IMG/VR virus record: IMGVR_UViG_3300035698_007508
Location: 32,001-96,000 of that record
DNA length: 64,000 bases
Strand: one strand, 5' to 3'
Source: a virus
Numbering within the stretch: the first letter of the stretch is position 1; each line of letters opens with the position of its first letter. The translations under genes and the position numbers were made by a program. Below, one piece after another: positions 1 through 37,720 of the stretch. Under the pieces are notes generated by a model. The model did not search any database and was not told the origin of the DNA. It was given only the letters and a program-made list of their open reading frames with translations.

Positions 1-2106
1 AACGCCAAGGCCAGTGTACCGGTCCAGGTGGGCGACAAGCTGTCACCGCGCTGGGGATTGAAGGGTGTTGTGGCCAAGATCATACCTATGGATCAGATGC
101 CGCGGCACGCCGGTACCAATGCGCCGTACGATCTGCTACTCAACCCCATGACCATTCTATCACGCGTTGCAGCGGGAGCCCTTGTCGAAATGCAGCTTGG
201 TAAGCTGGCCAAGCTGCGCGGCAAGGGCTTCAAACTCCCGCAGATGCCGCCGGAAGAGGGCTGGTCCGCCTGGGCGCAACGTCAGCTACTTGAGGCAGGC
301 GTGGACGAGAAGGATCAGATATTCGATCCCGAGCTGGGTCGAGCACTGAACAAGCCCGTCGCTACCGGCAACATGTACTGGATGGCGTTCCATCACCTTT
401 CTGAGAAGAAGCTGAGTGAGCGTGGCTCGTCCGGCCTGGGCTACACACAGGATGAACTGCCGGCCCGCGGTGGGTCTGAGACGCAACAGGCCAAGAAGAT
501 GAGTCAGATGGACATCACGCAGCTTCTGGCGCACGGTGCTACCGACGTGGTCAAGGATGGGCAGATCATCCGCGGCGCCCGGAACGAAGACTACTGGAAG
601 GCGCTCAAGCTGGGCCGCCCGCTACCGACTCCCGACGTACCGTTTGTGTACAAGAAGTTCCTGAACCTGTTGAACGCCAGCGGCATCAACATCGAGCAGA
701 AGGGCGATACGTTGCGGTTGCTGCCTATGCTTGACGAGGACGTTGATCAATTGAGCCACGGTGCAATCACGACCAGCGCGAGGGTGGACGACAAGATGGA
801 GCCCATCAAGGGTGGGCTGTTTGATCCCGGGCGTACGGGCGGTGCAATGGGTAAGTTCTGGTCGCACATTGACCTGGTCGAGCCAATGCCCAACCCTGTC
901 TTCGAAGAGCCGATCCGGCGCCTGTTAGGCCTGCGCAAGCAGGACTTCACCGATATCCTGGCCGGGCGTCAGGAACTCAACGGCCAATCAGGCGGCAAGG
1001 CTATACGTGATGCACTAGCCGGTATCGATATCGACGCGCAGATCAAGGAGCACCGGGGTAACATCCGTAAGTACCGCGGCGCCAACCGGGACAACTCGAT
1101 CAAGATCCTGGGATACCTGGACGCCGCCAAGAAGCAGGCCATCCACCCATCCAAGTGGATGTTGACCAAGCTTCCGGTACTGCCGCCCGTGTTCCGCCCT
1201 GTATCCCGTCTGGGCGATATCACGATCGAAGCTGACCTGAACGAGCTGTATCGCGATGCGATCGAGGTCAACAACGCTATCGGCACATTGCGTAAGGATC
1301 TACCCGAGTCGGAACTACAGGACGAGAAGGAAGCGCTGTACCGTGCAGTGAAGGCCGTGACAGGGCTTGGCGATCCAATCACACCCGAGGGACGGTCCCG
1401 CCGCCTTAAGGGCGCGCTCAAGAACGTCATCGGTGATTCACCAAAAAGCGGATTTTTTCAAAGTAGAGTTATCTCCAAGCCTGTTGACCTGGTTGGGCGT
1501 GCAGTCGTAACGCCGGATCCGACGTTGGACATGGATAGTGTAGGATTGCCCGAAGACTCTGCCTGGGACCTGTATCACGACTTTGTCGTCCGGCGGCTGG
1601 TGCGCCAGAACGTACCGTCGCACCGCGCACTCAAGATGATTGAGGATCGTGAGGCCCCAGCCAAGGATGCATTGAACCTGGAAATGCAGTCACGGCCTAT
1701 CATCATGGACCGTGCGCCGACCTGGCATCGATTCAATCTACTGGCGTTCCGGCCACATCTGGTCGAGGGTAAGACCATGCACGTGAGCCCGTTGATCACC
1801 AAGGGCTTCAACATGGATTTTGACGGTGACGCCGTGAACTTCCATGTACCGGTGTCAGACAAGGCTGTGGAGCAGACATACAGCAAAATGCTACCGAGCA
1901 AGAACCTGTTCAGTCTGACCGACTTGAAGTCGCCCCGCCACACCCCGCAGCAGGAAATGGCGCTTGGCCTGTACCTGCTGACCCGTGCCAAGACCGCTCG
2001 GGAGTCCAAGACTTTCGCTACGGTAGCCCAGGCGCGCCGGGCGTATAGGGCCGGAGAGATTGGCGCCAACGATCCGATCAACATATTGGAGTTGAAAGAT
2101 GCCTAA
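1..2106 (+). CDS. rpoBC: Phage multi-subunit RNA polymerase, fused beta C-terminal region + beta' N-terminal region (5'-truncated)
   Basis: Frame is open from base 1. Beta motifs: GDKLSPRWGLKG (cf. GDKMAGRHGNKG), LLNPMTILSR, HHLSEKK, GINIE. Then beta' motifs: GGLFD..HIDL, KLPVLPPVFRP, DLNELYR, KPVDLVGRAV, DRAPTWHR, and the catalytic NMDFDGD at 1810-1830. Confidence 0.95.
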   Translation, partial: NAKASVPVQVGDKLSPRWGLKGVVAKIIPMDQMPRHAGTNAPYDLLLNPMTILSRVAAGALVEMQLGKLAKLRGKGFKLPQMPPEEGWSAWAQRQLLEAGVDEKDQIFDPELGRALNKPVATGNMYWMAFHHLSEKKLSERGSSGLGYTQDELPARGGSETQQAKKMSQMDITQLLAHGATDVVKDGQIIRGARNEDYWKALKLGRPLPTPDVPFVYKKFLNLLNASGINIEQKGDTLRLLPMLDEDVDQLSHGAITTSARVDDKMEPIKGGLFDPGRTGGAMGKFWSHIDLVEPMPNPVFEEPIRRLLGLRKQDFTDILAGRQELNGQSGGKAIRDALAGIDIDAQIKEHRGNIRKYRGANRDNSIKILGYLDAAKKQAIHPSKWMLTKLPVLPPVFRPVSRLGDITIEADLNELYRDAIEVNNAIGTLRKDLPESELQDEKEALYRAVKAVTGLGDPITPEGRSRRLKGALKNVIGDSPKSGFFQSRVISKPVDLVGRAVVTPDPTLDMDSVGLPEDSAWDLYHDFVVRRLVRQNVPSHRALKMIEDREAPAKDALNLEMQSRPIIMDRAPTWHRFNLLAFRPHLVEGKTMHVSPLITKGFNMDFDGDAVNFHVPVSDKAVEQTYSKMLPSKNLFSLTDLKSPRHTPQQEMALGLYLLTRAKTARESKTFATVAQARRAYRAGEIGANDPINILELKDA

Positions 2107-2923
2107 GCTGTGGGCGTGCAAAGATGGGTCCGTACTGATTGGTAGTGTCGAGGCGCAGGCCGCCGGCGGGCTCAGCTATGTACCGGATAGTTGCGCCACA
2201 GTTAACGTGTACGTACAGGCGTTTTACGACGACTACAGACACACGCATAGGTGTGACGATGCTTGCTTCGGCATTTATCTGCACACAGATAGGACAGTGC
2301 GGTTCCTAGGCTACGCGCAGTTGGATAACTGGATCGATGGCGGCTCCCGCTATAGTCCGTGGTGGTACATCGACTGGTCTACGGTTGACTACAACTGTCC
2401 GTGTGTCCAGTTCGAGGCACGCTGTGCAGAGAATGATCCTATAGACGATTGCGGCGGTGTACACGGTACCGGCAGTATTAGACCCGCAACGGAGTGTCAT
2501 GACGGTGTTGTCACCCTGTGCGTACGTAGCACAGCGGGCCCTAACTGTACCGCTTTGGGGTGCAATGTGATCATAGCCAATACGTGGTATCACATATGGG
2601 ACATCGCGGCCTTGACGCCGTGTGTTGGCGGCGCGTCGGTGGCCGCAATCGGACCTGCACGCGTGGAGCCTGCTGATCTACTGTGGGATGCTGCTCATCT
2701 GGCGCACGGGTTCGAATTGCGCGGTACAGATGGCGAAGCGTGGCTGCTGGCGGCCACCGACACTGACATAGAACGTGAAGCGCGCAGGGCGCACGCGGAT
2801 GAACGCGTGGCAATCTGTAAAGAGTGTCCACATTTCACGTCGGATTCCTGCGGTATCTGGAATGCGGACATGGCCGCGATACGCTATGGGCTAGATATAT
2901 GTCCGTTACGTAAATGGTGGTAA
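2099..2923 (+). CDS. Cys-rich hypothetical protein with C-terminal RxxICxxCP...CPxxKW motif (DUF6171-like)
   Basis: 274-aa ORF overlapping the RNAP stop by 8 nt; about 17 Cys; ends RVAICKECPHF..CG..CPLRKWW. Confidence 0.6.
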   Translation: MPKLWACKDGSVLIGSVEAQAAGGLSYVPDSCATVNVYVQAFYDDYRHTHRCDDACFGIYLHTDRTVRFLGYAQLDNWIDGGSRYSPWWYIDWSTVDYNCPCVQFEARCAENDPIDDCGGVHGTGSIRPATECHDGVVTLCVRSTAGPNCTALGCNVIIANTWYHIWDIAALTPCVGGASVAAIGPARVEPADLLWDAAHLAHGFELRGTDGEAWLLAATDTDIEREARRAHADERVAICKECPHFTSDSCGIWNADMAAIRYGLDICPLRKWW

Positions 2924-2986
2924 AATGAGTTGCATACATCGTGGCGACTGTAGTACCGTAATATGCACATCTTGGAAGGAGACAAC

Positions 2987-3607
2987 ATGACACAGAGACT
3001 TGACTACGTGAAGTTACAGGCCGTTATGGACGGTTTTCAGAAGAAGGCGTTCGTCGCTATGCCCGGCGGGGCCGATCCAGCCGCAGGCGGGATGCAGTCA
3101 CAAGCACAGGCCGCACCACCCGGTGGCGCACCTATGGACCCGGCCGCGATGGGCGGAATGCCGATGGACCCGATGGCGGGCGGCGGTATGCCGATGGACC
3201 CGGCGGCAATGGGCATGGGCCCAATGCCCGGCTCGGTTACGATGTCCATCCCTGAACTCATTGAGTTCATTGCCGTCGTGAAGGGTGACGGAGCTGCGGC
3301 TGCGGGCGAGAAGCCTAAGAAGAAGGACGACGAAGCAGCACCGGCGGCCGGCGCACCGGCCGAGGCCGATCCGATGGCGTCGCTGAACCAGAAACTTGAC
3401 CAGCTCTTGGCGGCCGCCGGCGGCGGTATGCCGATGGACCCGATGGCAGGCGGTGGCGGTATGCCACCAATGGCCGACGGCGGTGGTATGCCGATGGACC
3501 CGATGGCGGGCGGCGGTATGCCAGCTGATCCGATGGCGGGCGGCGGTATGCCAGCTGATCCGATGGCTGGCGGAGCGCCGATGGGCGGAGCGCCGCCACC
3601 TATGTAA
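2987..3607 (+). CDS. Low-complexity Gly/Met/Pro/Ala-rich protein, putative internal head protein
   Basis: SD GGAAGGAG before ATG 2987 (preferred over 2963); leader ending FQKKA; GGMPMDPMAG repeats. Confidence 0.75.
   Translation: MTQRLDYVKLQAVMDGFQKKAFVAMPGGADPAAGGMQSQAQAAPPGGAPMDPAAMGGMPMDPMAGGGMPMDPAAMGMGPMPGSVTMSIPELIEFIAVVKGDGAAAAGEKPKKKDDEAAPAAGAPAEADPMASLNQKLDQLLAAAGGGMPMDPMAGGGGMPPMADGGGMPMDPMAGGGMPADPMAGGGMPADPMAGGAPMGGAPPPM
3421..3570 (+). repeat. Five tandem ~30-nt coding repeats (GGMP[M/A]DPMAG); two more at 3151-3210
   Basis: Units at 3511-3540 and 3541-3570 differ at one base (cggcggtatgccagctgatccgatggc[g/t]gg); in frame with the CDS; no spacers. Confidence 0.9.
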
Positions 3608-3615
3608 GGACTAAC

Positions 3616-3873
3616 ATGGCAAATGGACGACCTGGACGGGTACGCGTGTTGCAGGGGGTCAAGCAGGTTCTGCTGGACACGCACGAAGCTACCGTCATCG
3701 AATTCCGGGACCAGTTTGGGGATCTGAACGCGTTGATCTCACGTCATTTCAACGATGACATGTGGATCTTCACGACCAAGGCCGATCCGGACTGGCACAC
3801 GCACTTGGTGCGGTTGGGCTATGCGCCAGCTGATATGAACGTACATCAACTCGTACAGAACTTGAAAGGCTGA
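3616..3873 (+). CDS. Hypothetical protein
   Basis: 85-aa ORF, AAGGA SD, tightly packed between neighbours. Confidence 0.7.
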   Translation: MANGRPGRVRVLQGVKQVLLDTHEATVIEFRDQFGDLNALISRHFNDDMWIFTTKADPDWHTHLVRLGYAPADMNVHQLVQNLKG

Positions 3874-3874
3874 C

Positions 3875-4279
3875 ATGAATGATACACCCGCATTGAGCTA
3901 CGTTCCGCCTTGGGTCCGCGACCTAATGGTAGGCCTTTGTACCGCCGCCGTACTCGCATCCGTAACCCTAGTCTTACGCCTGGACAAGACCGTCGCTACG
4001 TTTGTCGAGTCGCACGTGGAGACGCATAGGCAGCTGGACAGGATGATTACGGAGTTGAAGAACAATACCGTTCAGACCGCCCGCGAAGTCAACCTACTGC
4101 ACGACGATTTCCTTGAGTTCTCGGCCGGCACTACTGCTAACCGTTACACCATCTACAACGCGTTTACGGATCAGAAGAAGAGTGCCGAGGAGCTCAGGGA
4201 AGTATGGAACGCTATTCACGAGATCAAGTTGGACGTGGTCAAAATACAGAGCGATAGCGAGCGCATTACGCACGAGTGA
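3875..4279 (+). CDS. Single-pass membrane protein with cytoplasmic coiled coil (holin-like topology)
   Basis: Hydrophobic stretch LMVGLCTAAVLASVTLVL followed by helical heptad-like sequence; function not established. Confidence 0.55.
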   Translation: MNDTPALSYVPPWVRDLMVGLCTAAVLASVTLVLRLDKTVATFVESHVETHRQLDRMITELKNNTVQTAREVNLLHDDFLEFSAGTTANRYTIYNAFTDQKKSAEELREVWNAIHEIKLDVVKIQSDSERITHE

Positions 4280-4282
4280 CGT

Positions 4283-7243
4283 ATGCAGACAACCATCGGA
4301 CAGGTACTTGTAAACGACGCGCTTCCCGAGGAAATGCGGAATTACGGTCGGATATTGACCAGCAACGAAGCTGATGACTTGTTGGGCGCGGTTGCGCGTG
4401 ACCACCCCGAGGACTACCGTGATATCTCCCATGCACTGGTACAATTGGGCCGCAACGCCGCGTTCGAAGAGTCAGCAACGCTGTCCCTGTCTGACATGCA
4501 GGTCCCGTTTGACCGTAAAGAGCTGTTCGATCATGTACGCACTCAGACCCGTAAGATCATGGCGTCCAAGGATATGACTGACGATCAGAAACAGCAAGCG
4601 CTGGTTAGCGTATACGGGCAAGTCCAGAAATTCTTCGTCGATAACACGTACAAGGATATGGCGGCCAAGGACAACCCATTCGCGCTACAGGTACTGTCTA
4701 AGGCCCGCGGTAACCCGTCCCAGCTTGCAGCACTCATGACTACGCCTGGTACGTATACCGATGCATATGGCAACGTGATTCCCGTTTTCGTCCGCCATTC
4801 CTACGCCGAGGGCCTGAGCCCTCACGAGTACTGGGCGGGTACGTACGGCGCTAGGCAGGGTGTGATATGTTTGCATCCCGATACGGAGGTATTATTAGCC
4901 GATTTTACGGTCAGGAGGTTATCCGAGATCCGCGTTGGCGACACAGTATTAACAGATACTAATGAAGGCTTGGTACCTACTGCAGTACGTGCTGTGCACA
5001 ATAACGGGCTACAGCCTATGTATGAATTTACGTTCCGTAAGAATGCGAGCCAGTCTTACGTGCATGTCACGTGTACTGACCAACACAAATTCAAGGCGCG
5101 TTTGTGGAAGTCGGGCGCACGAGGCACGCCGCGAAAACTGCTTGAACCGCAGCTACGTCCTTTGTCAGACGCACGGTACCAGCGCAGGAAATGGAATAAT
5201 AATTACGTGGCAGTGCCAGCTGGAGGCGCGTGCGTTGGAGGTAAGCACGAACCGTTGGCATTACTATTGGGTTTGATGCTGGGTGACGGGTGTACAACCA
5301 AGTCTACACGTGGGCGATATAGTATCAGCTGCGCTGATCAGATTCTGATACGCGATGTACACGATTATATGGCAGAGCACGGTGTAGAACTGGTTAAAGT
5401 CGGTGGTGACAATTATAACTGGGTATTGAAACAGGCTTCAGCTGTATTCAATACCACACATACCAGCTTGACGAGCTATATGGGCGGAAAGTATGCACAC
5501 CAGAAAACATTACCGGTAGATATATATACGTGGGATACACACAGTATAGGCGCATTGGTAGGCGGATTGATAAGCGCTGACGGTAGCTTTACGCGCAGCG
5601 AAACAAGTAAGTGGATGTGTATACAGTGCACATCCAGAGATATGATCGCAGAACTGCATCGCGTACTGGAACTCAGACTAGGCGTATGGTGTAACCCTAT
5701 TTACCGTGTGGATAAAGCTGACAAACAGCACGCAGTACACGATCAATACGGTTTCACGATCACGCACCCCGATTCACTATGCAAACTTAGAGCGTGTATC
5801 ACGCTTGTAGGTATAAAGCGTGAACAGTTTGCAGCGTGGGATCTCAAGCCAGGTACGCGCTATAGTCCGCACGGTTTTCGTATACAGGGGCGTAGACTTG
5901 TCGGTATGCAGCCTGCACTAGATCTAGAAGTTGAGCACGTTTCTCATACATTTGTACTGGCGAACGGACTTATATCGTCTAATAGTACGAAATTTGCCAC
6001 CCGTGACGCTGGCGATCTAGGTAAGCAGTTCAACCAGGCGGCCATGCGTATGGTCGTGACCGCGAATGACTGCGACACGGCGAGCGGTATACCGGTCTCC
6101 ACCGACGACAAGGATACGATTGGTGGGGTACTGGCGCGTAAGGCCGGCAAGTACCCACCCGGCACCGTAGTTTCCAAAGAGGTACTTGAGGATCTGCAGG
6201 ACCTGGACAGTATCGTGGTGCGGTCTCCGCTCACCTGCGGCTTGTCCCAGGGCGTGTGCAAGCAGTGCGTCGGGCTCCGTGAGAATGGGGCCTTCCCGAA
6301 CACGGGCGATCATGTAGGTATCAACGCGGCCAGTGCGCTGGCCGAACGTATCGCCCAAGGAAGCTTAAATGTGAAACATTCTGGCGGCATGTCCAAGGGC
6401 GATACGGGCGAGAAAGTTTACGCTGGCTTCGATGTGATCAATCAGCTGTTCCAGGCACCCAAGACGTTTCCGAACCGCGCCGCCATCGCCACGATGGACG
6501 GCCGTGTTGATCGTATCGAGCCCGCCGCACAGGGCGGTCAGAACATCTATATCGACGACGAGCTCCATTACGCGTTGCCTGACGCCAAGGTAACCGTGCA
6601 GGTAGGGGACCGGGTCGAGGCTGGTGACCAGCTGTCCAGCGGTATTCTTAATCCCCGAGAGGTCGTGCAGTATAAAGGTATCGGCGAGGGCCGGCGTTAC
6701 TTCACGGAACGGGCGGCCCAGGCATTCCGTGAGAGCGGGTACAGCATCAATCGCCGCAATCTCGAAATCCTGGTTCGCGGTATGATGGATCACGCGGTGG
6801 TAGATGATCCCGACGGTTCTGGCGATTACCTACCAGGCGACATCGTGTCCTACAACGCTCTGGCCCGCGGGTACCGGCCACGCAAGGACGCGCAGCAGTT
6901 GGACACGGACAAGGCTATCGGACAGTACCTGGAACAGCCGATCCTGCACCACACGATCGGGACGCGCATCACCCGCGCTATGGCCAAGCAGTTACGTGAC
7001 TTCGGACACACACGTGTACTGGCGCACCCGTCGGTACCATCGTTTTCCCCGACGATGGTAGGCCTGCGTGCCGTACCGCAGCAGGAGTCAGACTGGATGG
7101 CACAGATGGGCTCCAGCCATTTGCAGAAGAATTTGCTCAAGAACGTACAGCGTAATGCTGAGTCTCAGACGCACGGCCTACACCCGGTACCGGCGTTGGC
7201 TAAAGGTGTGGACTTCGGAGATACAGAGGAGGTCGGGTACTGA
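4283..7243 (+). CDS. rpoC: Phage RNA polymerase beta' C-terminal subunit, intein-containing
   Basis: TTIGQVLVN start (cf. TTVGR); SKARGNPSQL; YAEGLSPHEYW..YGARQGV bridge helix; NDCD and CGLSQGVCKQC Zn ligands; trigger loop AQGSLNVKH; INRRNLEILVR. Confidence 0.93.
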   Translation: MQTTIGQVLVNDALPEEMRNYGRILTSNEADDLLGAVARDHPEDYRDISHALVQLGRNAAFEESATLSLSDMQVPFDRKELFDHVRTQTRKIMASKDMTDDQKQQALVSVYGQVQKFFVDNTYKDMAAKDNPFALQVLSKARGNPSQLAALMTTPGTYTDAYGNVIPVFVRHSYAEGLSPHEYWAGTYGARQGVICLHPDTEVLLADFTVRRLSEIRVGDTVLTDTNEGLVPTAVRAVHNNGLQPMYEFTFRKNASQSYVHVTCTDQHKFKARLWKSGARGTPRKLLEPQLRPLSDARYQRRKWNNNYVAVPAGGACVGGKHEPLALLLGLMLGDGCTTKSTRGRYSISCADQILIRDVHDYMAEHGVELVKVGGDNYNWVLKQASAVFNTTHTSLTSYMGGKYAHQKTLPVDIYTWDTHSIGALVGGLISADGSFTRSETSKWMCIQCTSRDMIAELHRVLELRLGVWCNPIYRVDKADKQHAVHDQYGFTITHPDSLCKLRACITLVGIKREQFAAWDLKPGTRYSPHGFRIQGRRLVGMQPALDLEVEHVSHTFVLANGLISSNSTKFATRDAGDLGKQFNQAAMRMVVTANDCDTASGIPVSTDDKDTIGGVLARKAGKYPPGTVVSKEVLEDLQDLDSIVVRSPLTCGLSQGVCKQCVGLRENGAFPNTGDHVGINAASALAERIAQGSLNVKHSGGMSKGDTGEKVYAGFDVINQLFQAPKTFPNRAAIATMDGRVDRIEPAAQGGQNIYIDDELHYALPDAKVTVQVGDRVEAGDQLSSGILNPREVVQYKGIGEGRRYFTERAAQAFRESGYSINRRNLEILVRGMMDHAVVDDPDGSGDYLPGDIVSYNALARGYRPRKDAQQLDTDKAIGQYLEQPILHHTIGTRITRAMAKQLRDFGHTRVLAHPSVPSFSPTMVGLRAVPQQESDWMAQMGSSHLQKNLLKNVQRNAESQTHGLHPVPALAKGVDFGDTEEVGY
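4868..5983 (+). mobile_element. Intein (372 aa) with LAGLIDADG homing endonuclease, inserted in the beta' bridge helix
   Basis: Starts CLHPDTEV; block B TDQH; LAGLIDADG motifs LLGLMLGDG and LVGGLISADG; ends HTFVLANGLISSN followed by +1 Ser. Removal restores GARQGVI-STKFAT. Visibly more AT-rich than the flanks. Confidence 0.95.
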
Positions 7244-7413
7244 TGGGTACGCTATCCAAACATTATGGGACTGGTGCAGCCACGGGGTTGACAGGTTACT
7301 TATTGACCCGTATGCTCTTACCACGGTCTGAACAGCCCGAGAACCGTTCGTTGAGTGAGGCAGATCAATTTTACGAAGTGGAGGCCGACGCAGGTTGTTG
7401 GCGTCCGCTATAG
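7243..7413 (+). CDS. Small 56-aa protein with Gly/Ala hydrophobic segment (below the ORF-track cutoff)
   Basis: TGATG overlap with the rpoC stop; GAGGAGG SD about 10 nt upstream; MGTLSKHYGTGAATGLTGYLLTRMLLPRSEQPENRSLSEADQFYEVEADAGCWRPL. Confidence 0.55.
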   Translation: MGTLSKHYGTGAATGLTGYLLTRMLLPRSEQPENRSLSEADQFYEVEADAGCWRPL

Positions 7414-7440
7414 CGGTTCGCGTAAGCGTGTAGAAAATAC

Positions 7441-7469
7441 TTGTCTACTGCGACAGAATGACCCATACT
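7441..7469 (+). promoter_or_regulatory. Candidate sigma70-type promoter TTGTCT-N17-CATACT
   Basis: In the short AT-richer intergenic gap upstream of the head-gene cluster (GAGGAG SD, ATG 7496). Confidence 0.35.
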
Positions 7470-7495
7470 GTGCGGCATAAATCGAGGAGAGTATC

Positions 7496-10348
7496 ATGAA
7501 GTTGGCTGACGTTCTGGCGACCCCGCCAAATAGCTTGATCAAGGACGCGGATATCGAGAGTCCCGACGAGGCGCAACTGGAGCGGGACTTTGCGAGCATG
7601 GCGTTCGTGTTCTTGCGTGACCGAGCCCCGGCGCTTATGCCCTATCTATTAGGGTTCGAGGTCGTAGACCGCGAAGAAGACGGTTCCCGCGCTATCGGTA
7701 TCTTTGGATTCAAGATCTCCGGCGAATACTACTACGTCCCCGCGTTCTTCGTGAACCAGCAGGTCAAAGGTATGGACCTGTTGTTCGCCAAGAAGACCAA
7801 CAGTTTCATGCCGCTGCGTGAGACCTGGATCAATCATTTGCTCGACAAGTCCACGTTACAGCTCGGCGAAGGCCGTAACGACAAGAAGCTGCGCGAAGAC
7901 TTCGAGAACCCCAATTTCGACTTCATCTCGTCACCGCCTGGTACGACCAAGCTGGCCAACGCCGGACTCGGTTACCTGTTCACAGCAGAGGAACTGGCTA
8001 AGTTGGGTCAGATTGTCACACCGGCACAGACGTCGGGTATCCCGCGTCCCCTGATGATGGCACAGCAGGCACAACCGGGCGCACAGCCGCAGCAGGACCC
8101 GAACGCCAGCGGCGCAGCTGTACAGCCACCACCAGCGTCCGGCGTCGTGCCGGTAGGTAACGTGGCCACACTTCAACAGGCTGGTCAGGTACTACCCGGG
8201 AACGTCACCGGTCAGACACCGCAGTTCCCCGGTAAGGCTGCAGGCGTTAGCGCACGCGGTAAGCGAGACGGTAGCGGTCCATACGGTGCTAGTGCGCAGC
8301 GTTCGTTGACCGGTGATAAGGGCGTACGTCAACTTGCTGGCGAAGAATGTCCGATGGCGGCCGGCGGCACCAAGGCCGATTCAGAACTCACACCGGCGGA
8401 AGCCAAGGCGCGTAAAGCGTGGAAGTCTAGCCAAAAACAGGCCGGGTGGCACGTTGGCCAGTGTCACGAAGCATGGAACGATATACAGGGCGCCGTCGCG
8501 GAAAGCATGGCCAAGGATGCCGCTTTTCAGATGGACTGGGCCGGGTTCGTCGCAGCTCTCAACAAGCAGACCCTTGACGATTGGCACAAAACGGCTGACG
8601 GTAGCCCTCTTCTTTCATACATCGCGCACCACGGTGGTCCACGGGCTGCACGTGCGCTGATGACGTCGCTGGGTAACGTGAAGTTCGCCAACGCGGCCCT
8701 TCTTTTTTACCCATCAGTCGAGTCCCTGTACGTGCACGAGTTCGACGCCAGCCTACAGCCCGAGAAGCGTGCAGCTACGATCAGCGTGGTCAGTAGCGGC
8801 GAGATGGATGGACCATGTTGCCCTGAAGACGCTTCCGACGCCGAGCGTAAACGTCTGGTACGCGATAGTTTCAGCATCATCGATCGCCGTGACTCCGAGT
8901 CCAAGTCGGAAGTGTTCGACGCTGCGTACGAGAAGCAGTACTCTAATCCGACCGAGAGCGGTACCTACGACTTGTTACTGCCAACCGGTAGTACGGCCGA
9001 GGCCTGGGTTCTACAACAGGCGGGCGGACAACCTGGTAAGGGCCTGGTAGTTGTCGAGCCGTCCAATCGTTTCTTCTTCACTGCCGATCCATCCCGCGTA
9101 TACGTACGCGGGGAACAGCGGGACGGTGATGGCCCGTACGCTAAGGCCAAGTCGCTGGGTAGCATGCAATCGGACGAGCGCTACATCCTGGTCAACGAGC
9201 GCGGCGACGCAAGCGCGCCATTCCGCGTACAAGCCGTGGTGGCCGAGAACGGTGAGCGCGTACGCATCCGTGTGAACTTTGAGACCTGTGTGGATCACGC
9301 GAAGTCACGTGCTGGTACGTTCGACGGTATCAGTGATGGTTACTATGACGATCGCACCAAGTACCTGCAGCTGTCCGACGACTCCAGTCCGAAGCTGCGT
9401 AAGGCCAATGAGAACCTGATTGTGTCCAAGGCATGGAAGGTAGTGAGCCTGGTCGACAAATACGATTACGCTCGCCCACCCAAGGCTATGGACGATCCGG
9501 AAGAGCGTTCCGCCGCACGTTCCGCCGCGGAGAATGCGTACGACGCGTTCTCACCCGGTGACCCTATTGACTTGGAAGAGGCATTCGGCAAGCACGCGAT
9601 CCATCGACTGACTGTTGAGGCTGCGGACCAGGGTAACACCTTCTATAGCTACTTCGACGGTTACACCGACGGTCCGTGGACGCAGAAGCAGGCCATGCTC
9701 AAGCTGGTTACCAAGTACGGCATGAGCGTTGACGACGCCGAGGACACGATGCTGGACGCCGTGGCGAACATGAAATCACGCAAGCTGATCAAACTGGCGC
9801 AGGGTGTCGGTATCGGCATGAACATGCCGCAACCCCCGAGCGCTACCGGCTCTGACCCGAGCACGGGAGTTCCGATCGAGGAACCGTGGACTGGTACCGA
9901 GACCGGCGAAATGCTGGGCGCACCGCCGCTGGCTGATACGATGGAGCCTGGCTACGCTGTCGGCGGGCAGACCGAGAACGAACTGTCCAGCGGTGGGCAG
10001 CAGGACGCGGGTCAGGAAGCTATGGCCCTGTCTGAACAGGCTGCCCAGACCGGTCAGAAGAACGTGTTCGATCACGCGACGATCGGTGGACTGGTACGCC
10101 TGTACGACGCTTCATCTGTGATCGATCAGTACGTACCCGAGCTGATCAAGGCGCTCGACCGCGTCGGTCGTATTCTCTTCATTTTCTACTGGAAGAACGA
10201 GGACTTCGCGGAACGTTACGGCAAGGAAGACCTGGCCGAAATGGAAGACCTGATCCGCGGTGTGTTCAAATCGTTCGGCGACTTGGTGCTCAAGTTGAAG
10301 CAGAAGTCGGTCGGTTCCGACGACAGCAAGGACGTGTTGGCGATATGA
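7496..10348 (+). CDS. Large multi-domain hypothetical protein, putative processed head/inner-body protein
   Basis: 950-aa ORF with strong SD; globular-looking N- and C-terminal blocks separated by Q/P/A-rich linkers bounded by K-x-A motifs. Confidence 0.75.
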   Translation: MKLADVLATPPNSLIKDADIESPDEAQLERDFASMAFVFLRDRAPALMPYLLGFEVVDREEDGSRAIGIFGFKISGEYYYVPAFFVNQQVKGMDLLFAKKTNSFMPLRETWINHLLDKSTLQLGEGRNDKKLREDFENPNFDFISSPPGTTKLANAGLGYLFTAEELAKLGQIVTPAQTSGIPRPLMMAQQAQPGAQPQQDPNASGAAVQPPPASGVVPVGNVATLQQAGQVLPGNVTGQTPQFPGKAAGVSARGKRDGSGPYGASAQRSLTGDKGVRQLAGEECPMAAGGTKADSELTPAEAKARKAWKSSQKQAGWHVGQCHEAWNDIQGAVAESMAKDAAFQMDWAGFVAALNKQTLDDWHKTADGSPLLSYIAHHGGPRAARALMTSLGNVKFANAALLFYPSVESLYVHEFDASLQPEKRAATISVVSSGEMDGPCCPEDASDAERKRLVRDSFSIIDRRDSESKSEVFDAAYEKQYSNPTESGTYDLLLPTGSTAEAWVLQQAGGQPGKGLVVVEPSNRFFFTADPSRVYVRGEQRDGDGPYAKAKSLGSMQSDERYILVNERGDASAPFRVQAVVAENGERVRIRVNFETCVDHAKSRAGTFDGISDGYYDDRTKYLQLSDDSSPKLRKANENLIVSKAWKVVSLVDKYDYARPPKAMDDPEERSAARSAAENAYDAFSPGDPIDLEEAFGKHAIHRLTVEAADQGNTFYSYFDGYTDGPWTQKQAMLKLVTKYGMSVDDAEDTMLDAVANMKSRKLIKLAQGVGIGMNMPQPPSATGSDPSTGVPIEEPWTGTETGEMLGAPPLADTMEPGYAVGGQTENELSSGGQQDAGQEAMALSEQAAQTGQKNVFDHATIGGLVRLYDASSVIDQYVPELIKALDRVGRILFIFYWKNEDFAERYGKEDLAEMEDLIRGVFKSFGDLVLKLKQKSVGSDDSKDVLAI

Positions 10349-11364
10349 TCTTGGGCAACCGCGATATCCGGACCCCGTTCATCAGCGAGGGCGATGATCC
10401 GCTGAACGTGGTATGCGACTGGCCGCACCAGGTCGCCGTAGCCATGCGGGATCAGAATATCAAGTATCGTCGGTTACCTAAGGTACTGAGAGACACGCCT
10501 GAGTGTAAGTTGATTTGTACGCATGCCGAGTTCTTGACCGCGTTCGCGCAGTCAGAGGCTGCGGCGCGGAAGAAGTACAACCTACACCACATCGCTGACG
10601 GTTGGTTTACGCGTCGTGGTGAGTCGCTGGGTAGGGATTATGTGGATCCTATGTTGCTCGGCGGCGCGCCTCACGGGGTGACCGCGGCGCTATGCGGGGA
10701 AGAGGTATTGATGCAGAAGTGCCCGATAGAACTGATTGAGATCTATGAGAAGCTGTTCTACCATTGCCGCGCCGCAGACGGCACGATGGTGGCTTCGCCA
10801 ATCCGTAAACGTATCTTGGCACTCAATGGCCAACCTACGTTGACGCCCCGTGCGACAGCGCAGGACAAATGGAAAGCCGTGGCGGCGATTTTCGACTATT
10901 CAACGCTCGTCGAGTACTGGGGCTTCTGGGAGATTGACACGGCCGGCTCGTTACCGGACGCTGTACGGTTCATGCGCCAGAAACGTTATGGACAAGAGCA
11001 TATGTTTGAGCGTATTATGACGGGGCAAATTGATGATGAACAGACACTTGCAATGGTAAGCCAGAGTATGGAGCACGAAAAGCAACAGTTTGAGATGGGC
11101 GCTGGTGCCAGCGAGAACGTGTGGGCACAGCTATTCGGTCGTGTATTGCAACTGGTGGCGCCGGAACTAGCTCCGCTGCCACAGTCCGAAGCGCAGATGC
11201 AGTCCCAGAGTGCTGCACTGACCCGCAAACTGGAGGCGCAGCGCAACGTGCATACCATCGATGTAGAGGACGCTGGTCCTGCTGCTGGCCGTGACGCACG
11301 CAATCAACAGATTCAGCAACACTTAGAGGCTGAAGCAGCAAGACAGGAGGCACCGGTACAATGA
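10345..11364 (+). CDS. Hypothetical protein
   Basis: 339-aa ORF with ATGA overlaps at both ends. Confidence 0.75.
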   Translation: MILGNRDIRTPFISEGDDPLNVVCDWPHQVAVAMRDQNIKYRRLPKVLRDTPECKLICTHAEFLTAFAQSEAAARKKYNLHHIADGWFTRRGESLGRDYVDPMLLGGAPHGVTAALCGEEVLMQKCPIELIEIYEKLFYHCRAADGTMVASPIRKRILALNGQPTLTPRATAQDKWKAVAAIFDYSTLVEYWGFWEIDTAGSLPDAVRFMRQKRYGQEHMFERIMTGQIDDEQTLAMVSQSMEHEKQQFEMGAGASENVWAQLFGRVLQLVAPELAPLPQSEAQMQSQSAALTRKLEAQRNVHTIDVEDAGPAAGRDARNQQIQQHLEAEAARQEAPVQ

Positions 11365-12839
11365 TCGATCCAGTACTGAAGGATAAGCTGATGGGAGCAC
11401 TCCAAACCAGCGTTGATCATATCAACGGTGGTATGCAGGCTCAGGAAGCGGTGGTTAAGGCAGCCACCGCCGCAGACTTTAACGTCGAACAGTCCCGCCG
11501 GTTGTGCGAGCTGTTCAACACCGCCCGTACCCTATATCATTTCGAGCGGAACCCCGGCCAGAAGGAGGCGTCATTCGAGCTGATCGACGCCGACGCAGTG
11601 CTTGGTGATATCTTCACCGCACCCGGGACCGCGCCGAAGATTGCGCAGGATGCAGTTCCCGACTATACTGAGTACGATAGTCCTGAACTGATGGTACGGG
11701 ACGGCATGGTAGTCGAGGCCGCCGCCGAACTTTGGCCCAAAGCGGCCGAAGCGCTCCCGAGCCTGGATATGCAAGCCCGCCGGGCATATCGCATCATAGA
11801 TACGCAGCGTGGACTGGCCGACCAGACGCAGTCCGAGTGTAGGCAGGCCGAGATTCACATATCGCAGTCATTGAGTAAACTTGCGGCGGCCATCGGGCAA
11901 GACTTCAGCTTGAACGGTCCGGCACGCTATGCGCGATTCCTACGGGCCCGTGACGGCCAGGAGGATCAGCCCGTAGTGGCTAAGCTGGCAGAGTTCCTAC
12001 CGGCCTACGTCAAGGTCAGTGCAGGCGATCTGGCGGCCTGTGGCCGTATCGTCGAGGACCGCGACCTACAGCCGTGGTTCGCACACATCGATTTTGCGCG
12101 TCAGATGGAGCATCAGGCTACTGCCTCGTTGGCCATTGCACGCACTGTGGCGAAGGAAGCACAAGCCTTCGAGGATGCCTTCGTCGGCATGGTCGGCGGA
12201 CAGCGACATGAACCAGATGTAATTGAGACCCTTCTCGCCCCTTTTGTGGAAAAACGTAGCGCCGAAGGCGCCGGCACGTACAGCATACCGACGCTGGACG
12301 TGGGTGCTGCGTTTGGACTGACACCGGAGCGCACGACGCCTGCGAGCCTGCGTGGCGAGGGTAACAAGAACCTCGGTACCCGCACCGTAGAGCGTCAGCC
12401 GGGCTTGGCCGGTAAGCTGCTTGGCGGCACCGGTGGTATCGTCGGCGAGGCCACGAAGGATTACGTGACGTCCGGGATCAAGACGTTGGGACAACGCGGC
12501 GTGGCCGAGAACCGTACGATCACGGACCGGTTAAAGAATCAGCAACGCGAAGTACTGCTACAGGACCTGCTGGCCACCGATCCGTTTATCAGCGAAGCCG
12601 ATCCACAATCTGTGGCTAATGGGTACCTGACGATCATGCAGGTAGCGCCCGAGGTGTCCACCAACAAGGAAGTGGTCCGTGCGGTGTTGCGGCAGCTGAT
12701 ACACACCGGCGCGCTTAGCACGTTCGACGCGTCGTCGCTGGCCGACCTTGAGAAGACTATTCGCGAAACAGCTGGTACACTACCAGTGCGGCAAACTGTG
12801 GGGGCAATTGGCCGGGACCGCAGTAGTAGACGAAGATGA
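11361..12839 (+). CDS. Hypothetical helical protein, putative head-associated
   Basis: 492-aa ORF, ATGA-coupled; K-x-A motifs confined to the N-terminal ~300 aa. Confidence 0.75.
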   Translation: MIDPVLKDKLMGALQTSVDHINGGMQAQEAVVKAATAADFNVEQSRRLCELFNTARTLYHFERNPGQKEASFELIDADAVLGDIFTAPGTAPKIAQDAVPDYTEYDSPELMVRDGMVVEAAAELWPKAAEALPSLDMQARRAYRIIDTQRGLADQTQSECRQAEIHISQSLSKLAAAIGQDFSLNGPARYARFLRARDGQEDQPVVAKLAEFLPAYVKVSAGDLAACGRIVEDRDLQPWFAHIDFARQMEHQATASLAIARTVAKEAQAFEDAFVGMVGGQRHEPDVIETLLAPFVEKRSAEGAGTYSIPTLDVGAAFGLTPERTTPASLRGEGNKNLGTRTVERQPGLAGKLLGGTGGIVGEATKDYVTSGIKTLGQRGVAENRTITDRLKNQQREVLLQDLLATDPFISEADPQSVANGYLTIMQVAPEVSTNKEVVRAVLRQLIHTGALSTFDASSLADLEKTIRETAGTLPVRQTVGAIGRDRSSRRR

Positions 12840-13189
12840 AGATCCGGACATACAAGAAGTTGGAAGGCGGTATCTACCGCGTATCCATGTACACACAGGA
12901 CTGGTCAGAACTGGATCAACAGCTGATGGCCAAGTTTGACGAGCCTGAGATCGATCTAGGCGGTACGTTTACCGGCGCGCCGTCGCTCGATTTCGACCTG
13001 GACAACGACTTGGTACGGATCATGAGCGAATCACCGTTCTCCGTCGCTTTCGATATCGATGATTACGCGGACGCGCACGACCGCGCCGAACTCTGGGCCG
13101 ATACGATTCAGGCTCGGATCACGAGCGCCGTTTTCGCGCTCCGGTTGAATGCGGACGGATACACCGGCGAAGAGGTCACGGAGGTCTGA
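12836..13189 (+). CDS. Hypothetical acidic protein
   Basis: 117-aa ORF, ATGA-coupled. Confidence 0.75.
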   Translation: MKIRTYKKLEGGIYRVSMYTQDWSELDQQLMAKFDEPEIDLGGTFTGAPSLDFDLDNDLVRIMSESPFSVAFDIDDYADAHDRAELWADTIQARITSAVFALRLNADGYTGEEVTEV

Positions 13190-13190
13190 T

Positions 13191-14246
13191 ATGGACAAAG
13201 AAGCACAATGGGCACAGAACGCATTGGAAGCCGTACGACGTGCCGGATCGCGTGGAGCTGATGCGGTACGCAGTATTCCACAGGTTCGGCAGTTACAAAG
13301 GTCGTTAAAGGACAATCCGCAGCTCAAACAGATGCTGGTCAACAGTTTGATAGGCGCCGGCGCCGGCGCTGGTACGCTCGGCCTGGCTCGTGCGTTCACA
13401 CCGCATGACGAGGAAGAGGATAAGGGAAAGGGCGTCGTGAGTCAGGCGCTACTCGGGGCGTTACTCGGCGGCACGGCAGGTGCGGGCTTTACCGGTATGA
13501 AGCAGTTGTTCAAGCAGCCACCCGCGCCGCCGCCAGCCGCTGCAAGTATGGGCAAGCGAATAGGTAACGCGGCCAGCAACTCCGGTACTGCCACAATAGG
13601 CGCTGGACTACAAAACCCGGGCGCTATCGCCGGCGGAGCACTGGCAGGCGCGACGCACTTCGGCTTTACTAGCATGATGGGGCAACGTGGTTTCCGTACC
13701 GCGCATCCGGTAGTCGATCGCCTACGTGAACTGCGTGCGTCGTCAATGGCACAGAAAGATATGGCACTAGTGTCGGAGATTGATAATATATTGAATAAGT
13801 TTGACAACACTGTAGCCATGCGTCCTGGTCGCTTTCCCACGTTTCGGAAGGCTGTAGGGCACGGCGGCGGGTTACGCGGTAAATTGAATCGGTTGCGTAA
13901 GCCGGCTCCGGGCGCAGTGACACGTAGGCCCACATTCGTTTCCGTGCCCGGTGTACCTCCGAAGGCACGTGGTTGGTTCGGGCGACTGGGTCAGTCGTCT
14001 ACCGGATCCAAAGCTATACGCGACGTCAAGGGCGCAGTGAGGGGTAGGTCTGTATTGAAGCGTGGATTGCGTCGTAGGTCGTTGACTGGGTTACTCGCCA
14101 GTATGATGGGTGGCGCGTATGTCGGCGACAAGATGCAGGACTACCTGGCAGGTCAGGATCACTATGATCCGAACTGGCGTCCGCCGAGTCATACACAGAA
14201 GATCATCCAGCCGTGGACAGACCTAGCAGCGGGAGCTGACAAATGA
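13191..14246 (+). CDS. Glycine-zipper, Arg/Lys-rich protein, putative internal/ejection protein
   Basis: GGAGGT SD then ATG 13191 (MDKEA...); segments LIGAGAGAGTLGL, ALLGALLGGTAGAG, IAGGALAGA and a very basic C-terminal third. Confidence 0.7.
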   Translation: MDKEAQWAQNALEAVRRAGSRGADAVRSIPQVRQLQRSLKDNPQLKQMLVNSLIGAGAGAGTLGLARAFTPHDEEEDKGKGVVSQALLGALLGGTAGAGFTGMKQLFKQPPAPPPAAASMGKRIGNAASNSGTATIGAGLQNPGAIAGGALAGATHFGFTSMMGQRGFRTAHPVVDRLRELRASSMAQKDMALVSEIDNILNKFDNTVAMRPGRFPTFRKAVGHGGGLRGKLNRLRKPAPGAVTRRPTFVSVPGVPPKARGWFGRLGQSSTGSKAIRDVKGAVRGRSVLKRGLRRRSLTGLLASMMGGAYVGDKMQDYLAGQDHYDPNWRPPSHTQKIIQPWTDLAAGADK

Positions 14247-15703
14247 TTGATCGACACGAAGAAGAAGGCCTACGTAAACTCACGTTCTCGGATCAGTTCC
14301 GGCCTGAAGTAGAGGTTGGGCTGCAGCTGGTGGAAGATCCCGCTGTGTTCGCCAAGACAGCGAGTGTCACGTTCGACTGCACGGCGGAAGCCCTGAAACC
14401 GGACAAAGATCATGTGGGTATCCACGCTGTGGCGCTGGGCGATTTCGAGCACTACGGTATGAACCGCAACGGTGACGGTTTTCCCAAGAAAGCATGTCAG
14501 ACCCGGCACGAGACGTTTGTTACGCACGGGCACATGTTCATCGGACACAACAACCGGGACCGTGACCAGGCCGTAGGACAGATCGTCAAGTCCGGTTACA
14601 ACGAGCCTATGGGTCGTATCCAGCTCTTCCTACACGCACACAAGGACAAGTCCCAGGCACAACTGCACAAGTTGGCAACGACCGGCGAACACAGTTTCAG
14701 CATGGCCTGCCGTGTACCATTCGACCGTTGCGACATATGCAATACCTTGCGCAAGTCAGCAGCAGACCCTAACCAGTGCGCGCACATCCGCGACAGCTTG
14801 GGCGAGACGTTTGAGGATGGTAAGGTGGCCTGCACGCAGAACGACTTCCCGACCTGGTTCGACATGAGCTGGGTTGACCGACCGGCGGACCGTATCGCCT
14901 GGAACCTCAAGGTCGCCATGGCACATGGCCGGCAGGATGCTGTCAAACAAGCAGAGTCCAGCGGGTTGTGGGTCCCAGACGAGCTGGAGTGCAATGTGCC
15001 CGGTTACCAGCGTAAACTGGCGACGGTACAGAAGCTGGCCACGCTGGAAGAGAAGTATGCGGCCCTGGCCGCTAGTCAGACGCCACCTCGTGGCTATGAC
15101 CGGTACCTTTGGGACTTACGTAAGGCTGCTGCTTTCGACCTGTCGGATGCGCAGTTGGATCGGCTACGGACGTTCAATCCGGAGCAGGTCTTCGCGAAGT
15201 TGGCCGCGGCTGGGGTTGTGTTGAGCGCACCTGCGTTCTTCAAGTTTGCCCTGGGCCTGGGTTACGGCGAGCTGGCATCAGAAATGCCGAGTATACTGGA
15301 CAATGTACGTGTTGGACTGTTCGGTAGACTGTACAAACAAGGTGGATACCAACGGACGTGTCGGAATACGTATTTCGACGTTGACACCCGTGCGCTCGAA
15401 GCGTATGGTTGGGGCCACAATTCAGAACTGACACAGTTTGTCAGCGAGAAAGTGGCAAGTGCCGGCGCTTTTGTCGGCCACAGCGTAGAGGCGCGGATTA
15501 TTGATGCGACGATTTGTGGTAGACAACCGGAAGTAGGTATGCCAATATCTGTGAAAGTTGCTTCGGGGACTACGGTCCACCGCGGCGCTGAAATTTACGC
15601 GGCGTACAAACTGAGCGCATTAAGCGCGATGGAAGTCTGCCATAAGCAGGCAAACGCGGACGCGCTGTTGGCTTTAGCGGCAGTCCAGAACCTGGTGAAG
15701 TGA
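14243..15703 (+). CDS. Prohead (capsid maturation) protease, HK97/assemblin-like, with Zn-ribbon insert and long C-terminal extension
   Basis: NRNGDGF; His in MFIGHN; Ser in SFSMAC; CDIC..CAH; FDMSWVDRPAD. Lies upstream of scaffold, decoration and capsid genes. Confidence 0.8.
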   Translation: MIDRHEEEGLRKLTFSDQFRPEVEVGLQLVEDPAVFAKTASVTFDCTAEALKPDKDHVGIHAVALGDFEHYGMNRNGDGFPKKACQTRHETFVTHGHMFIGHNNRDRDQAVGQIVKSGYNEPMGRIQLFLHAHKDKSQAQLHKLATTGEHSFSMACRVPFDRCDICNTLRKSAADPNQCAHIRDSLGETFEDGKVACTQNDFPTWFDMSWVDRPADRIAWNLKVAMAHGRQDAVKQAESSGLWVPDELECNVPGYQRKLATVQKLATLEEKYAALAASQTPPRGYDRYLWDLRKAAAFDLSDAQLDRLRTFNPEQVFAKLAAAGVVLSAPAFFKFALGLGYGELASEMPSILDNVRVGLFGRLYKQGGYQRTCRNTYFDVDTRALEAYGWGHNSELTQFVSEKVASAGAFVGHSVEARIIDATICGRQPEVGMPISVKVASGTTVHRGAEIYAAYKLSALSAMEVCHKQANADALLALAAVQNLVK

Positions 15704-15722
15704 AACATAAAGGAGAGTAATC

Positions 15723-17075: not shown

Positions 17076-17090
17076 CAGTCAACTTTCTTG

Positions 17091-17119
17091 TTGCGCCACC
17101 CTATACGGAGGTGTACTAT
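17091..17119 (+). promoter_or_regulatory. Candidate sigma70-type promoter TTGCGC-N17-TACTAT
   Basis: Just after the scaffold stop and upstream of the decoration/capsid genes. Overlaps the SD and ATG at 17118; if real, GTG 17139 would be the start codon. Confidence 0.35.
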
Positions 17120-17540
17120 GAAATCTGAGGATAGGAACGTGAAAACCACTGCAGACGCACAGACAGTTAAACTGGCGCATGCTGAGACCCTGCTGAAGCA
17201 AGCGGCTGAGTACGTATCGACAGCACAGCCACAGTTGGACAAGTATGCAGAGTTCACAGATCGCTTCGAGAAGCGCGCCCAGCAGGTTGCTGGCGTCCTT
17301 GTCGATCGCGGGATCATCCCGGCGGCACAGTCGGCCCTCCTGTTGCAGAAGTTTGCAGCAGACCCGACGAAGGCCCTTGACATGATCGCGCAGTTGGCCC
17401 GTCTCGTCGGCCCAGATCAGCTGGGCAAGAGCGCGGGTATCCGAGTACCGCAGGGTCGGAAACTCGGACCGTTCGAGGCGCTTGTCATGAACGGCGATTC
17501 GGCGAACACGCATTTCGAAAGTTCTGCGATGGTGGACTAA
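17118..17540 (+). CDS. Small helical head-associated protein
   Basis: GGAGGT SD 6 nt before ATG 17118; 6 of 10 Lys are in K-x-A motifs. Confidence 0.7.
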   Translation: MKSEDRNVKTTADAQTVKLAHAETLLKQAAEYVSTAQPQLDKYAEFTDRFEKRAQQVAGVLVDRGIIPAAQSALLLQKFAADPTKALDMIAQLARLVGPDQLGKSAGIRVPQGRKLGPFEALVMNGDSANTHFESSAMVD

Positions 17541-17572
17541 ACTGAAACAAGAAAGAAAATAAGGAGACAACA

Positions 17573-18106: not shown

Positions 18107-18150
18107 CCTGACTGGAAAGTCTTTCGGACCTCAAACAAGGAGATAAGGCA

Positions 18151-37015: not shown

Positions 37016-37720
37016 ATGATGAACTACCCAGAGTATGACAGCTGGCAGGCGGACCCCACCCCCGAGAACCTCGGTGCGGTCATGCGCGCAGTTGATCCCG
37101 TGCTCGTCAGCGAGGTCCAGCGTTATGCTGGGCCCAAAGACATTTTACACGTCAAGGCTAAAGGCCTGGCGATCAAGGCCATCCGGTCTTACGACGCGAC
37201 CAAGGGCGCCAACCTCCGGTCATGGGTCACGACCCAGTTGCAGCCATTGTCCCGCTACGGCCAGCAGCTGCAGCCTGTGCGCGTGCCGGAAGCAGTACGG
37301 CGTCAGGCTGCGGAAGCGCACACCCAGTCAGAGCGCTTGCACGACGACCTGGGCCGTATGCCTACCGATACGGAGCTGGCGGACCACATGGGCCTGTCGG
37401 TCGCCAAGATCCAGAAGCTACGCAGCCGGGTGCGCGCAACCATGTCTGAATCGCAGATGACCGCGCCGAAGGGCGGCGTACCGGGCGCCATGCCGGCAAC
37501 TCAGTTCCCATCCGGAGCCGACTATGCGTTCGAGGCTGTGTACCAGGACTTGGGGCCGCGTGAGAAGGTCATTGTCGACTGGAAGACAGGCTCCCACGGT
37601 AAAGAGCAGTTGAGCAACCAAGAGATCGCACAGCGGCTGGGCGTTTCACCCGCCCTGATTACGCAGATCACCGGCCGACTGGTGGCGCAAATTCAGGAGG
37701 TAGCGAGCCATGGCGTTTAG
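37016..37720 (+). CDS. Phage RNA polymerase sigma factor (sigma70 family, group 3/FliA-like domain set)
   Basis: Region 2 KAIRSYDATKGANLRSWV; region 3 LGRMPTDTELADHMGLS; region 4 HTH LGPREKVI..LSNQEIAQRLGVSPALITQI. Confidence 0.88.
   Translation: MMNYPEYDSWQADPTPENLGAVMRAVDPVLVSEVQRYAGPKDILHVKAKGLAIKAIRSYDATKGANLRSWVTTQLQPLSRYGQQLQPVRVPEAVRRQAAEAHTQSERLHDDLGRMPTDTELADHMGLSVAKIQKLRSRVRATMSESQMTAPKGGVPGAMPATQFPSGADYAFEAVYQDLGPREKVIVDWKTGSHGKEQLSNQEIAQRLGVSPALITQITGRLVAQIQEVASHGV

Follow-up and report, generated by a model that had tools for sequence, protein, structure and literature searches.

A phage RNA polymerase with beta fused to half of a split beta-prime and an intein in its bridge helix

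Gene anatomy of the fused and split polymerase

The stretch of viral DNA considered here, referred to as the window, comprises 64,000 nucleotides (nt), bases 32001-96000 of the 126,754-bp IMG/VR virus record IMGVR_UViG_3300035698_007508, which is estimated to be ~60% complete. At its left end lie two genes for the large subunits of a bacterial-type multisubunit RNA polymerase (RNAP), partitioned such that the first joins a complete beta to the N-terminal part of beta-prime in a single reading frame, and the second, separated from the first by four open reading frames (ORFs), carries the rest of beta-prime interrupted by an intein (Table 1). The window edge cuts the fused ORF, whose start lies 2.3 kb upstream; the whole gene (G000:C1:29715-34106, equivalent to window -2285 to 2106) specifies a product of 1463 amino acids (aa), termed chain 1. 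An earlier sequence-only reading, made from the letters of the window without database searches, had proposed such a fusion from motifs, and domain searches agree with it, as Pfam places Rpb2_2, Rpb2_3 and Rpb2_6, followed by Rpb1_1 and Rpb1_2, along the one frame (Rpb2 E = 1e-41). Residues 15-1013 of chain 1 align to nearly the whole of bacterial beta (PDB beta chains, E to 1e-62), and the stretch 1075-1450 to positions 162-543 of E. coli beta-prime (PDB, E = 3e-47), the matches to PDB beta and beta-prime chains (E = 1e-62 to 1e-47) being far beyond chance. The Rpb2 domains of a bacterial-type core, the catalytic barrel included, are present, and all catalytic motifs are intact.

The landmarks of the fused gene named in that reading are exact: the GINIE of the beta C-terminal motif occupies nt 682-696, the stop codon nt 2104-2106, and the metal-binding motif between them the position given in Table 1. 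The Met of this NMDFDGD motif is invariant in 6 lineage members. In a MAFFT alignment of lineage members with three bacteria, the two subunits are joined without an added linker, such that ...SGINIEQ-KGD directly continues as the N-terminus of beta-prime, and the ~32-residue zinc ribbon of that N-terminus (CxC...CxxC) is deleted in all lineage members aligned (window 682-900). A single-sequence PDB search with the junction stretch alone gave no match, and the region is therefore divergent.

Chain 1 ends in ...NDPINILELKDA, a short linker on the surface, just ahead of the beta-prime TTxG motif. The polypeptide resumes, as had been noted, at MQTTIGQVL (nt 4283), 2177 nt past the stop of the fused gene, in a second product matched by Rpb1_5 (chain 2) that is 986 aa long as a precursor, with a predicted mature length of 614 aa after removal of the intein. 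Residue 2 of chain 2 corresponds in the alignment to position 665 of beta-prime chain 5uh5_D (1316 aa). In the one-chain relative L013 (related loci are given L numbers here), the sequence is continuous across the split spot, with ~three linker residues, and taken together the two genes therefore account for all of beta-prime without any loss. A split intein that would join the two products by trans-splicing was considered for the gene boundary and rejected; the ends sum to the uninterrupted one-chain sequence, and there are no HINT halves. The DxDGD triad of beta-prime is present, and the bridge-helix and trigger-loop regions align to PDB beta-prime once the intein is removed. A cluster of four cysteines (DC...TC...VCKQC) is also retained in the C-terminal half and reads as a putative second zinc site.

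Table 1. Features of the polymerase locus and the sigma-70-family gene, in window coordinates
Feature	Position	Strand	Basis and remarks
Fused beta::beta-prime-N gene, 3' 2.1 kb	1..2106	+	Pfam and PDB alignment
Fusion junction, GINIEQKGD (beta C-terminal motif) into beta-prime N-terminus	682..708	+	MAFFT alignment, motif coordinates
Catalytic metal-binding motif NMDFDGD	1810..1830	+	Motif coordinates; Met in place of canonical Ala
g1, 274 aa, acidic, Cys-rich, ORFan	2099..2923	+	No family match, no homologue in 18 related loci
g2, 214 aa, isoelectric point 4.1, low-complexity Gly/Met/Pro/Asp repeats	2963..3607	+	jackhmmer matches in nearest relatives
g3, 85 aa	3616..3873	+	jackhmmer matches in L005, L007, L008, L011
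g4, 134 aa, N-terminal hydrophobic helix, ORFan	3875..4279	+	No homologue in 18 related loci
Beta-prime C-half gene	4283..7243	+	Pfam Rpb1_5; PDB beta-prime alignment on either side of insert
Intein, 372 aa, residues 196-567 of chain 2	4868..5983	+	Hom_end_hint and LAGLIDADG_3 matches (LAGLIDADG_3 E = 2e-8)
Trigger-loop region (AERIAQGSLNVKHSGG)	6341..6388	+	Alignment; uninterrupted here, intein site in some relatives
Phage sigma-70-family factor	37016..37720	+	phrog_351 E = 2e-8; TIGR02980 SigB/F/G E = 2.6e-12, below model cut-off

An intein in the bridge helix

The sequence-only reading took the second gene as a plain continuation of beta-prime, which holds for its exteins and overlooked the intein. 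This element lies in the bridge helix, between GARQGVI and STKFATRDAG, flanks that align to adjacent bridge-helix residues of bacterial beta-prime and rejoin as a continuous helix. It begins with Cys1 (Cys196 of chain 2), carries block B as TDQH (residues 265-268, nt 5075-5086) and two LAGLIDADG motifs, LLGLMLGDG (nt 5264-5290) and LVGGLISADG (nt 5555-5584), each with an Asp, and ends in ...HTFVLANGLISSN (...SSN), where Asn567 is followed by Ser568 as Ser+1. The last block aligns with that of the Npu DnaE intein. The insertion keeps the reading frame, and the orthologues in L005, L008, L010, L011, L012 and L014 lack exactly this segment, all six passing from residue 195/196 straight to 568/569 in the numbering of chain 2. 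GC content at third codon positions (GC3) is 0.46 within the intein and 0.66-0.70 in the exteins, a foreign composition that points to recent arrival. From its motifs and its resemblance to the DnaE intein, the element is predicted to splice.

Homologues of this intein, at 27-46% identity, occur in ~70 protein clusters, nearly all of them beta-prime C-half proteins with an Rpb1_5 domain; they sit at the same site in some clusters, three residues away in one, and in the trigger loop in three (P0171, P0180 and P0188). With insertions in both the bridge helix and the trigger loop, one intein family has therefore occupied at least two or three sites of one protein. A scan of viral contigs with the intein alone returned one match, weak and partial. 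The family seems to be confined to the fused-RNAP lineage. Like the inteins of archaeal and eukaryote-virus RNAP large subunits, this one pairs a HINT domain with a LAGLIDADG endonuclease in one of the most conserved catalytic elements, and it differs from them in having a phage beta-prime C-half gene as its host (PMC1635734). Elsewhere in the window, the stretch at 53411-54604 has a low GC content like that of the RNAP intein (GC 0.467, GC3 0.455); a blastp comparison of these two stretches at E <= 0.01 gave no match.

Insertions are also seen in the homologues of chain 1. About half of the 120 nearest fused-gene homologues (P0003-P0122) contain 1-4 in-frame inserts of 150-650 aa with intein-like ends, and chains reach 3350 aa. 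At least ten sites are used, which in the residue numbering of chain 1 of this phage lie near 97, 349, 392-402 (the commonest), 587, 618-636, 752-788 (within the barrel motif GDKL/KGVV), 925-930, 1244 and 1372 (immediately past DFDGD).

Spread and history of the layout

The fusion of beta to the N-terminal part of beta-prime is found in 16 distinct IMG/VR loci, and in the cultured Salmonella phage Arash and Vibrio phage D181. In a collection of 5.8 billion proteins, the closest homologues of the fused gene have 88% and 86% identity, and the best 120 clusters (52-88% identity), drawn from JGI, ENA, Logan and NCBI, all combine Rpb2_6 with Rpb1 domains in one protein; every one of them (120/120) ends <=10 residues from the C-terminus of chain 1. 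Among the best 150 hits at the level of 50%-identity representatives (E < 1e-105), the corresponding segment lies nearly always at the very end of chains of 1450-3350 aa. Because the record consists of one metagenomic contig, either rearrangement might be suspected to reflect chimeric assembly, a frameshift error or pseudogene decay. Against such an origin stand the same fusion and the same C-terminal end in the 120 clusters and the best 150 representatives at 50% identity, the presence of the layout in Arash and Vibrio D181, which are cultured and have complete genomes, the detection of both Arash products (gp206 and gp216) as proteins, and the intact catalytic motifs of the genes described here. 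With the layout recurring in these clusters and in cultured genomes, an assembly artefact is close to refuted, and an artefactual or degenerate origin of any kind is exceedingly improbable. The fused and split arrangement is real and conserved, and is probably functional.

The four cultured phages Arash (gp206, 1525 aa; gp216, 606 aa; OQ632216; PMC10585845) and Vibrio D181, D148 and D69 share with this phage the two-chain layout, the split point, membership of one clade in the beta-prime tree, and an orthologous sigma gene, and differ from it in having only ~30% identity to it. Arash differs further in its nine gap genes, mostly on the opposite strand, and in having no intein; in Vibrio phage D181 (L003, 5712-7256, 7538-8155 and 8206-11226), a free-standing gene that carries a homing-endonuclease annotation also cuts beta, and the polymerase there has three genes. 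The Arash genes are labelled 'beta' and 'beta-prime' in their description, without mention of fusion or split (PMC10585845). The layout is common to hundreds of relatives of this phage, and a search of the literature found no description of it; relative to the literature searched, the layout is a new form of phage multisubunit RNAP.

The history of the arrangement can be read from a tree of beta-prime built on 1065 columns matching a hidden Markov model (HMM), using IQ-TREE with LG+G4 and an outgroup of three bacteria. The fused lineage forms a single clade (100/100 support), with the unsplit and unfused beta-prime of Rhizobium phage Y65 and Vibrio phage Va2 as its sister; a PF00562 search found no beta in Y65 or Va2, and the tree is limited to beta-prime for that reason. 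The 13 split forms constitute one clade (91/96), and the split maps as one change in 88% of bootstrap trees. Outside this clade fall three one-chain forms, in which a single ORF of 2105-2496 aa encodes beta and the whole of beta-prime (L012:1-6432, L013:9719-16036 and L028:8920-16407). The simplest history consistent with the tree would be one fusion, followed by one split within a sub-clade. Both rearrangements, on this phylogeny, arose inside one phage lineage with unsplit members outside the split clade, in keeping with the proposal of the sequence-only reading that the subunit architecture is an independent one.

Similar rearrangements are known from cells. The C-terminus of beta and the N-terminus of beta-prime adjoin in the enzyme, and natural rpoB-rpoC fusions that join these ends occur in Helicobacter and Wolbachia. 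Those fusions are cellular, retain an unsplit beta-prime and operate with alpha and omega, whereas the fusion described here is of phage-lineage origin and has lost the zinc ribbon. The rpoC1/rpoC2 split of cyanobacteria and plastids falls at the same boundary as the phage split, between the catalytic barrel module and the bridge-helix module. Residue 42 of cyanobacterial RpoC2 aligns to residue 51 of chain 2, and by extrapolation the phage cut lies ~10 residues upstream of the cyanobacterial one, before the TTxG motif rather than after it, as had been noted. Because lineage members outside the split clade are unsplit, the phage split arose separately from that of cyanobacteria.

Across the loci examined, the gap between the two RNAP genes ranges from 0.6 kb in Vibrio D181 through 1.4-2.4 kb in the closest relatives to 4.5-4.8 kb in others and in Arash, and in the close relative L011 the order is inverted, with the C-half gene (6538-8400) upstream of the fused gene (9275-15595). 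The four intervening genes that the sequence-only reading described are indeed present here on the same strand, spanning 2099-4279. None of g1-g4 matches Pfam, PHROGs or NCBIfam, g1 has no match in Atlas either, and a model of g3 (predicted local distance difference test score 70) has no fold match in PDB. Iterated searches of 18 related loci found no homologue of g1 or g4; only g2 and g3 recur, and only in the nearest sub-clade, g2 being matched by jackhmmer in L005, L006, L007 and L008 and weakly in L011. In these nearest relatives g2 adjoins g3, and g3 is kept downstream of the fused gene. The g2 product consists largely of GGMPMDP-like repeats around a short conserved helix, and the gene has a GC content of 66%.

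The absence of any + strand terminator-like site between the two RNAP genes makes their co-transcription likely, and this arrangement, together with the kept position of g2 and g3 in the closest relatives, could suggest that the gap ORFs encode proteins dedicated to this polymerase, as assembly factors or as small subunits that might, for instance, replace alpha or omega. Such a role is very unlikely, since two of the ORFs lack homologues in the 18 related loci and the other two are limited to one sub-clade, the gap varies in size and content among lineage members and is missing altogether from three, none of the four products matches any family, and g3 has no fold match. The four ORFs are variable filling and no part of the polymerase design. 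The sole sigma-70-like promoter match in the first 7.6 kb of the window (TTGACA, 17 nt, TATGCT; 7288-7316) sits in the 250-nt gap that follows the beta-prime C-half gene.

Subunit complement and place among phage polymerases

Bacterial-type core enzymes also contain an alpha dimer and omega, and neither was found here. Searches with PF01000 (alpha) and PF01192 (omega), which matched all 14 control genomes, gave no match in this record, in two complete relatives, in Arash or in D181, and each genome tested has one RNAP set. A gene for a sigma-70-family protein is present, sits inside the structural region, and has orthologues in 5/5 related genomes, including the Arash region that encodes gp10. 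This protein is probably the specificity subunit of the polymerase, and would direct it to promoters.

The RNAP genes lie among head and portal-region genes both here and in Arash. Mass spectrometry of Arash virions found more spectra for gp206 than for any other protein, the major capsid protein included, and gp216 and the sigma factor gp10 were also found in the particles (PMC10585845). By analogy with Arash, packaging of the enzyme in the virion for early transcription is plausible. It might instead be an unpackaged, non-virion polymerase synthesised once infection has begun, for middle or late genes, with host RNAP responsible for early transcription; with a single RNAP set per genome the same enzyme must act late in any case, and the Arash authors themselves raise the carry-over of abundant proteins (PMC10585845). 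The abundance of gp206 relative to the major capsid protein, the sigma factor in the Arash particles (PMC10585845) and the location of the RNAP genes amid head and portal-region genes in both phages speak against a non-virion enzyme, which is regarded as somewhat unlikely. Packaging is itself unproven, because abundant proteins may co-purify with Arash particles.

What has been published on the multisubunit RNAPs of phages deals chiefly with the phiKZ/AR9 type, with many chains and no sigma. These jumbo-phage enzymes have 4-5 chains, with beta also split, and come in two paralogous sets, one of which is packaged in the virion, with no sigma-70 homologue (PMC7824862; PMC13282480). The polymerase described here resembles them as a phage-encoded double-barrel RNAP that lacks alpha and omega and has its beta-prime split, and differs in that beta is whole and fused, there is one set, and a sigma-70-family gene is present and conserved. 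The phiKZ/AR9 enzymes are also far more divergent, the AR9 chain giving a match no better than E = 0.007. According to a 2026 review, jumbo phages that encode sigma use it with the host enzyme.

The sequence-only reading had further suggested kinship with mReC, the lineage of metagenomic tailed phages with deep-branching RNAPs (Weinheimer and Aylward 2020), and the polymerase could accordingly be seen as a re-partitioned branch of the mReC RNAP clade. Both groups consist of large phages with tails, most of them uncultured, whose beta and beta-prime resemble those of bacteria and are recognisable by bacterial COG and Pfam models, and the phage beta-prime sequences, including the unsplit ones of Y65 and Va2, group opposite the three bacteria, a grouping that says little because the outgroups are so few. 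To be counted as mReC, a phage needed beta and beta-prime as separate proteins of >= 800 aa each and an NADxDGD motif, and the capsid proteins of all mReC phages match PF07068 (Gp23) (PMC7481178). The rows examined in the mReC table list beta and beta-prime as two different genes (PMC7481178). Here, in contrast to whole and separate genes, beta is fused, the beta-prime C-half is separate with 614 aa when mature, and the motif is NMDFDGD; 0/6 of the related IMG sample numbers appear in the mReC tables. PF07068 had no match in the record, in a weak search in which control genomes gave no match either, nor in ten head-region ORFs at E <= 0.05. Since the phage departs from each mReC criterion tested, it is not filed under mReC, and descent from within that clade is unlikely; a deeper origin common to both may exist. 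The capsid module is very divergent: 13 head-region ORFs at window 7496-21707 have no Pfam match, with a weak PHROG match to a prohead protease at 14243-15703.

The account that best fits these observations, and which is considered likely as a whole, is that the locus encodes the only multisubunit RNAP detected in this phage, a bacterial-type enzyme that would consist of two chains. Chain 1 would supply a complete beta and the front of beta-prime up to and including the catalytic Asp triad, minus the zinc ribbon, and chain 2 the bridge helix, the four-Cys cluster, the trigger loop and the clamp's C-terminal portion. Protein splicing would have to excise the 372-aa intein before the enzyme works, leaving the 614-aa mature chain, and the endonuclease of the intein could drive homing into intein-free alleles during co-infection. 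The two chains would then assemble without alpha or omega, the covalent tether between beta and beta-prime probably replacing the assembly platform of the alpha dimer, and the enzyme, guided by the phage sigma factor, would probably be packaged for early transcription, by analogy with Arash. Beta and beta-prime would have fused once in the lineage and beta-prime would have split once in a sub-clade, after which the gap would have gathered variable genes, here two ORFs common to close relatives and two ORFans. Of this account, the gene anatomy, its conservation and the pattern in the tree are observed, and splicing, assembly, use of the sigma factor and packaging are inferred.

Several points weigh against this account. 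The phage is known here from sequence alone. The penultimate residue of the intein is Ser566, not the usual His, a position at which the Npu DnaE intein likewise lacks His and has Ala. That alpha and omega are lacking is a result of Pfam searches, and the record is only ~60% complete, although the two complete relatives are likewise negative. The tree has three bacterial outgroups only, was built with an HMM derived from the lineage itself and used LG+G4, and the one-chain forms may be a clade or a basal grade (approximately unbiased test, p = 0.49). Finally, the Arash particle proteome lists 116 proteins, and its authors warn that proteins abundant at the time of infection may co-purify (PMC10585845).

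A bolder version, judged rather less likely than not, is that of a minimal self-contained transcription machine of bacterial type, two chains and their own sigma with neither alpha nor omega and without the zinc ribbon at the N-terminus of beta-prime, in which the tether takes the place of the alpha platform and which is injected together with the DNA. If true, phage multisubunit RNAPs would comprise a third kind, in addition to the phiKZ/AR9 and crAss/YonO types, and few known intein targets would be as dense as this polymerase, in which chain 1 by itself would have at least 10 insertion sites.

The family is very large, and the phage of this window is an unexceptional member; the window by itself is of lower value, as one more member set apart by what is particular to it, the bridge-helix intein and two gap ORFans. 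The lineage as a whole encodes both a core enzyme and a sigma of its own, with a division of the subunits that is not known from cellular enzymes. It constitutes a natural test of the minimum for assembly of a bacterial-type RNAP, including whether a tether is enough in place of alpha and omega, and of where the large subunits tolerate cuts or interruptions. Because cultured members exist, in Arash and in Vibrio phages D181, D148 and D69, these questions are open to bench work.

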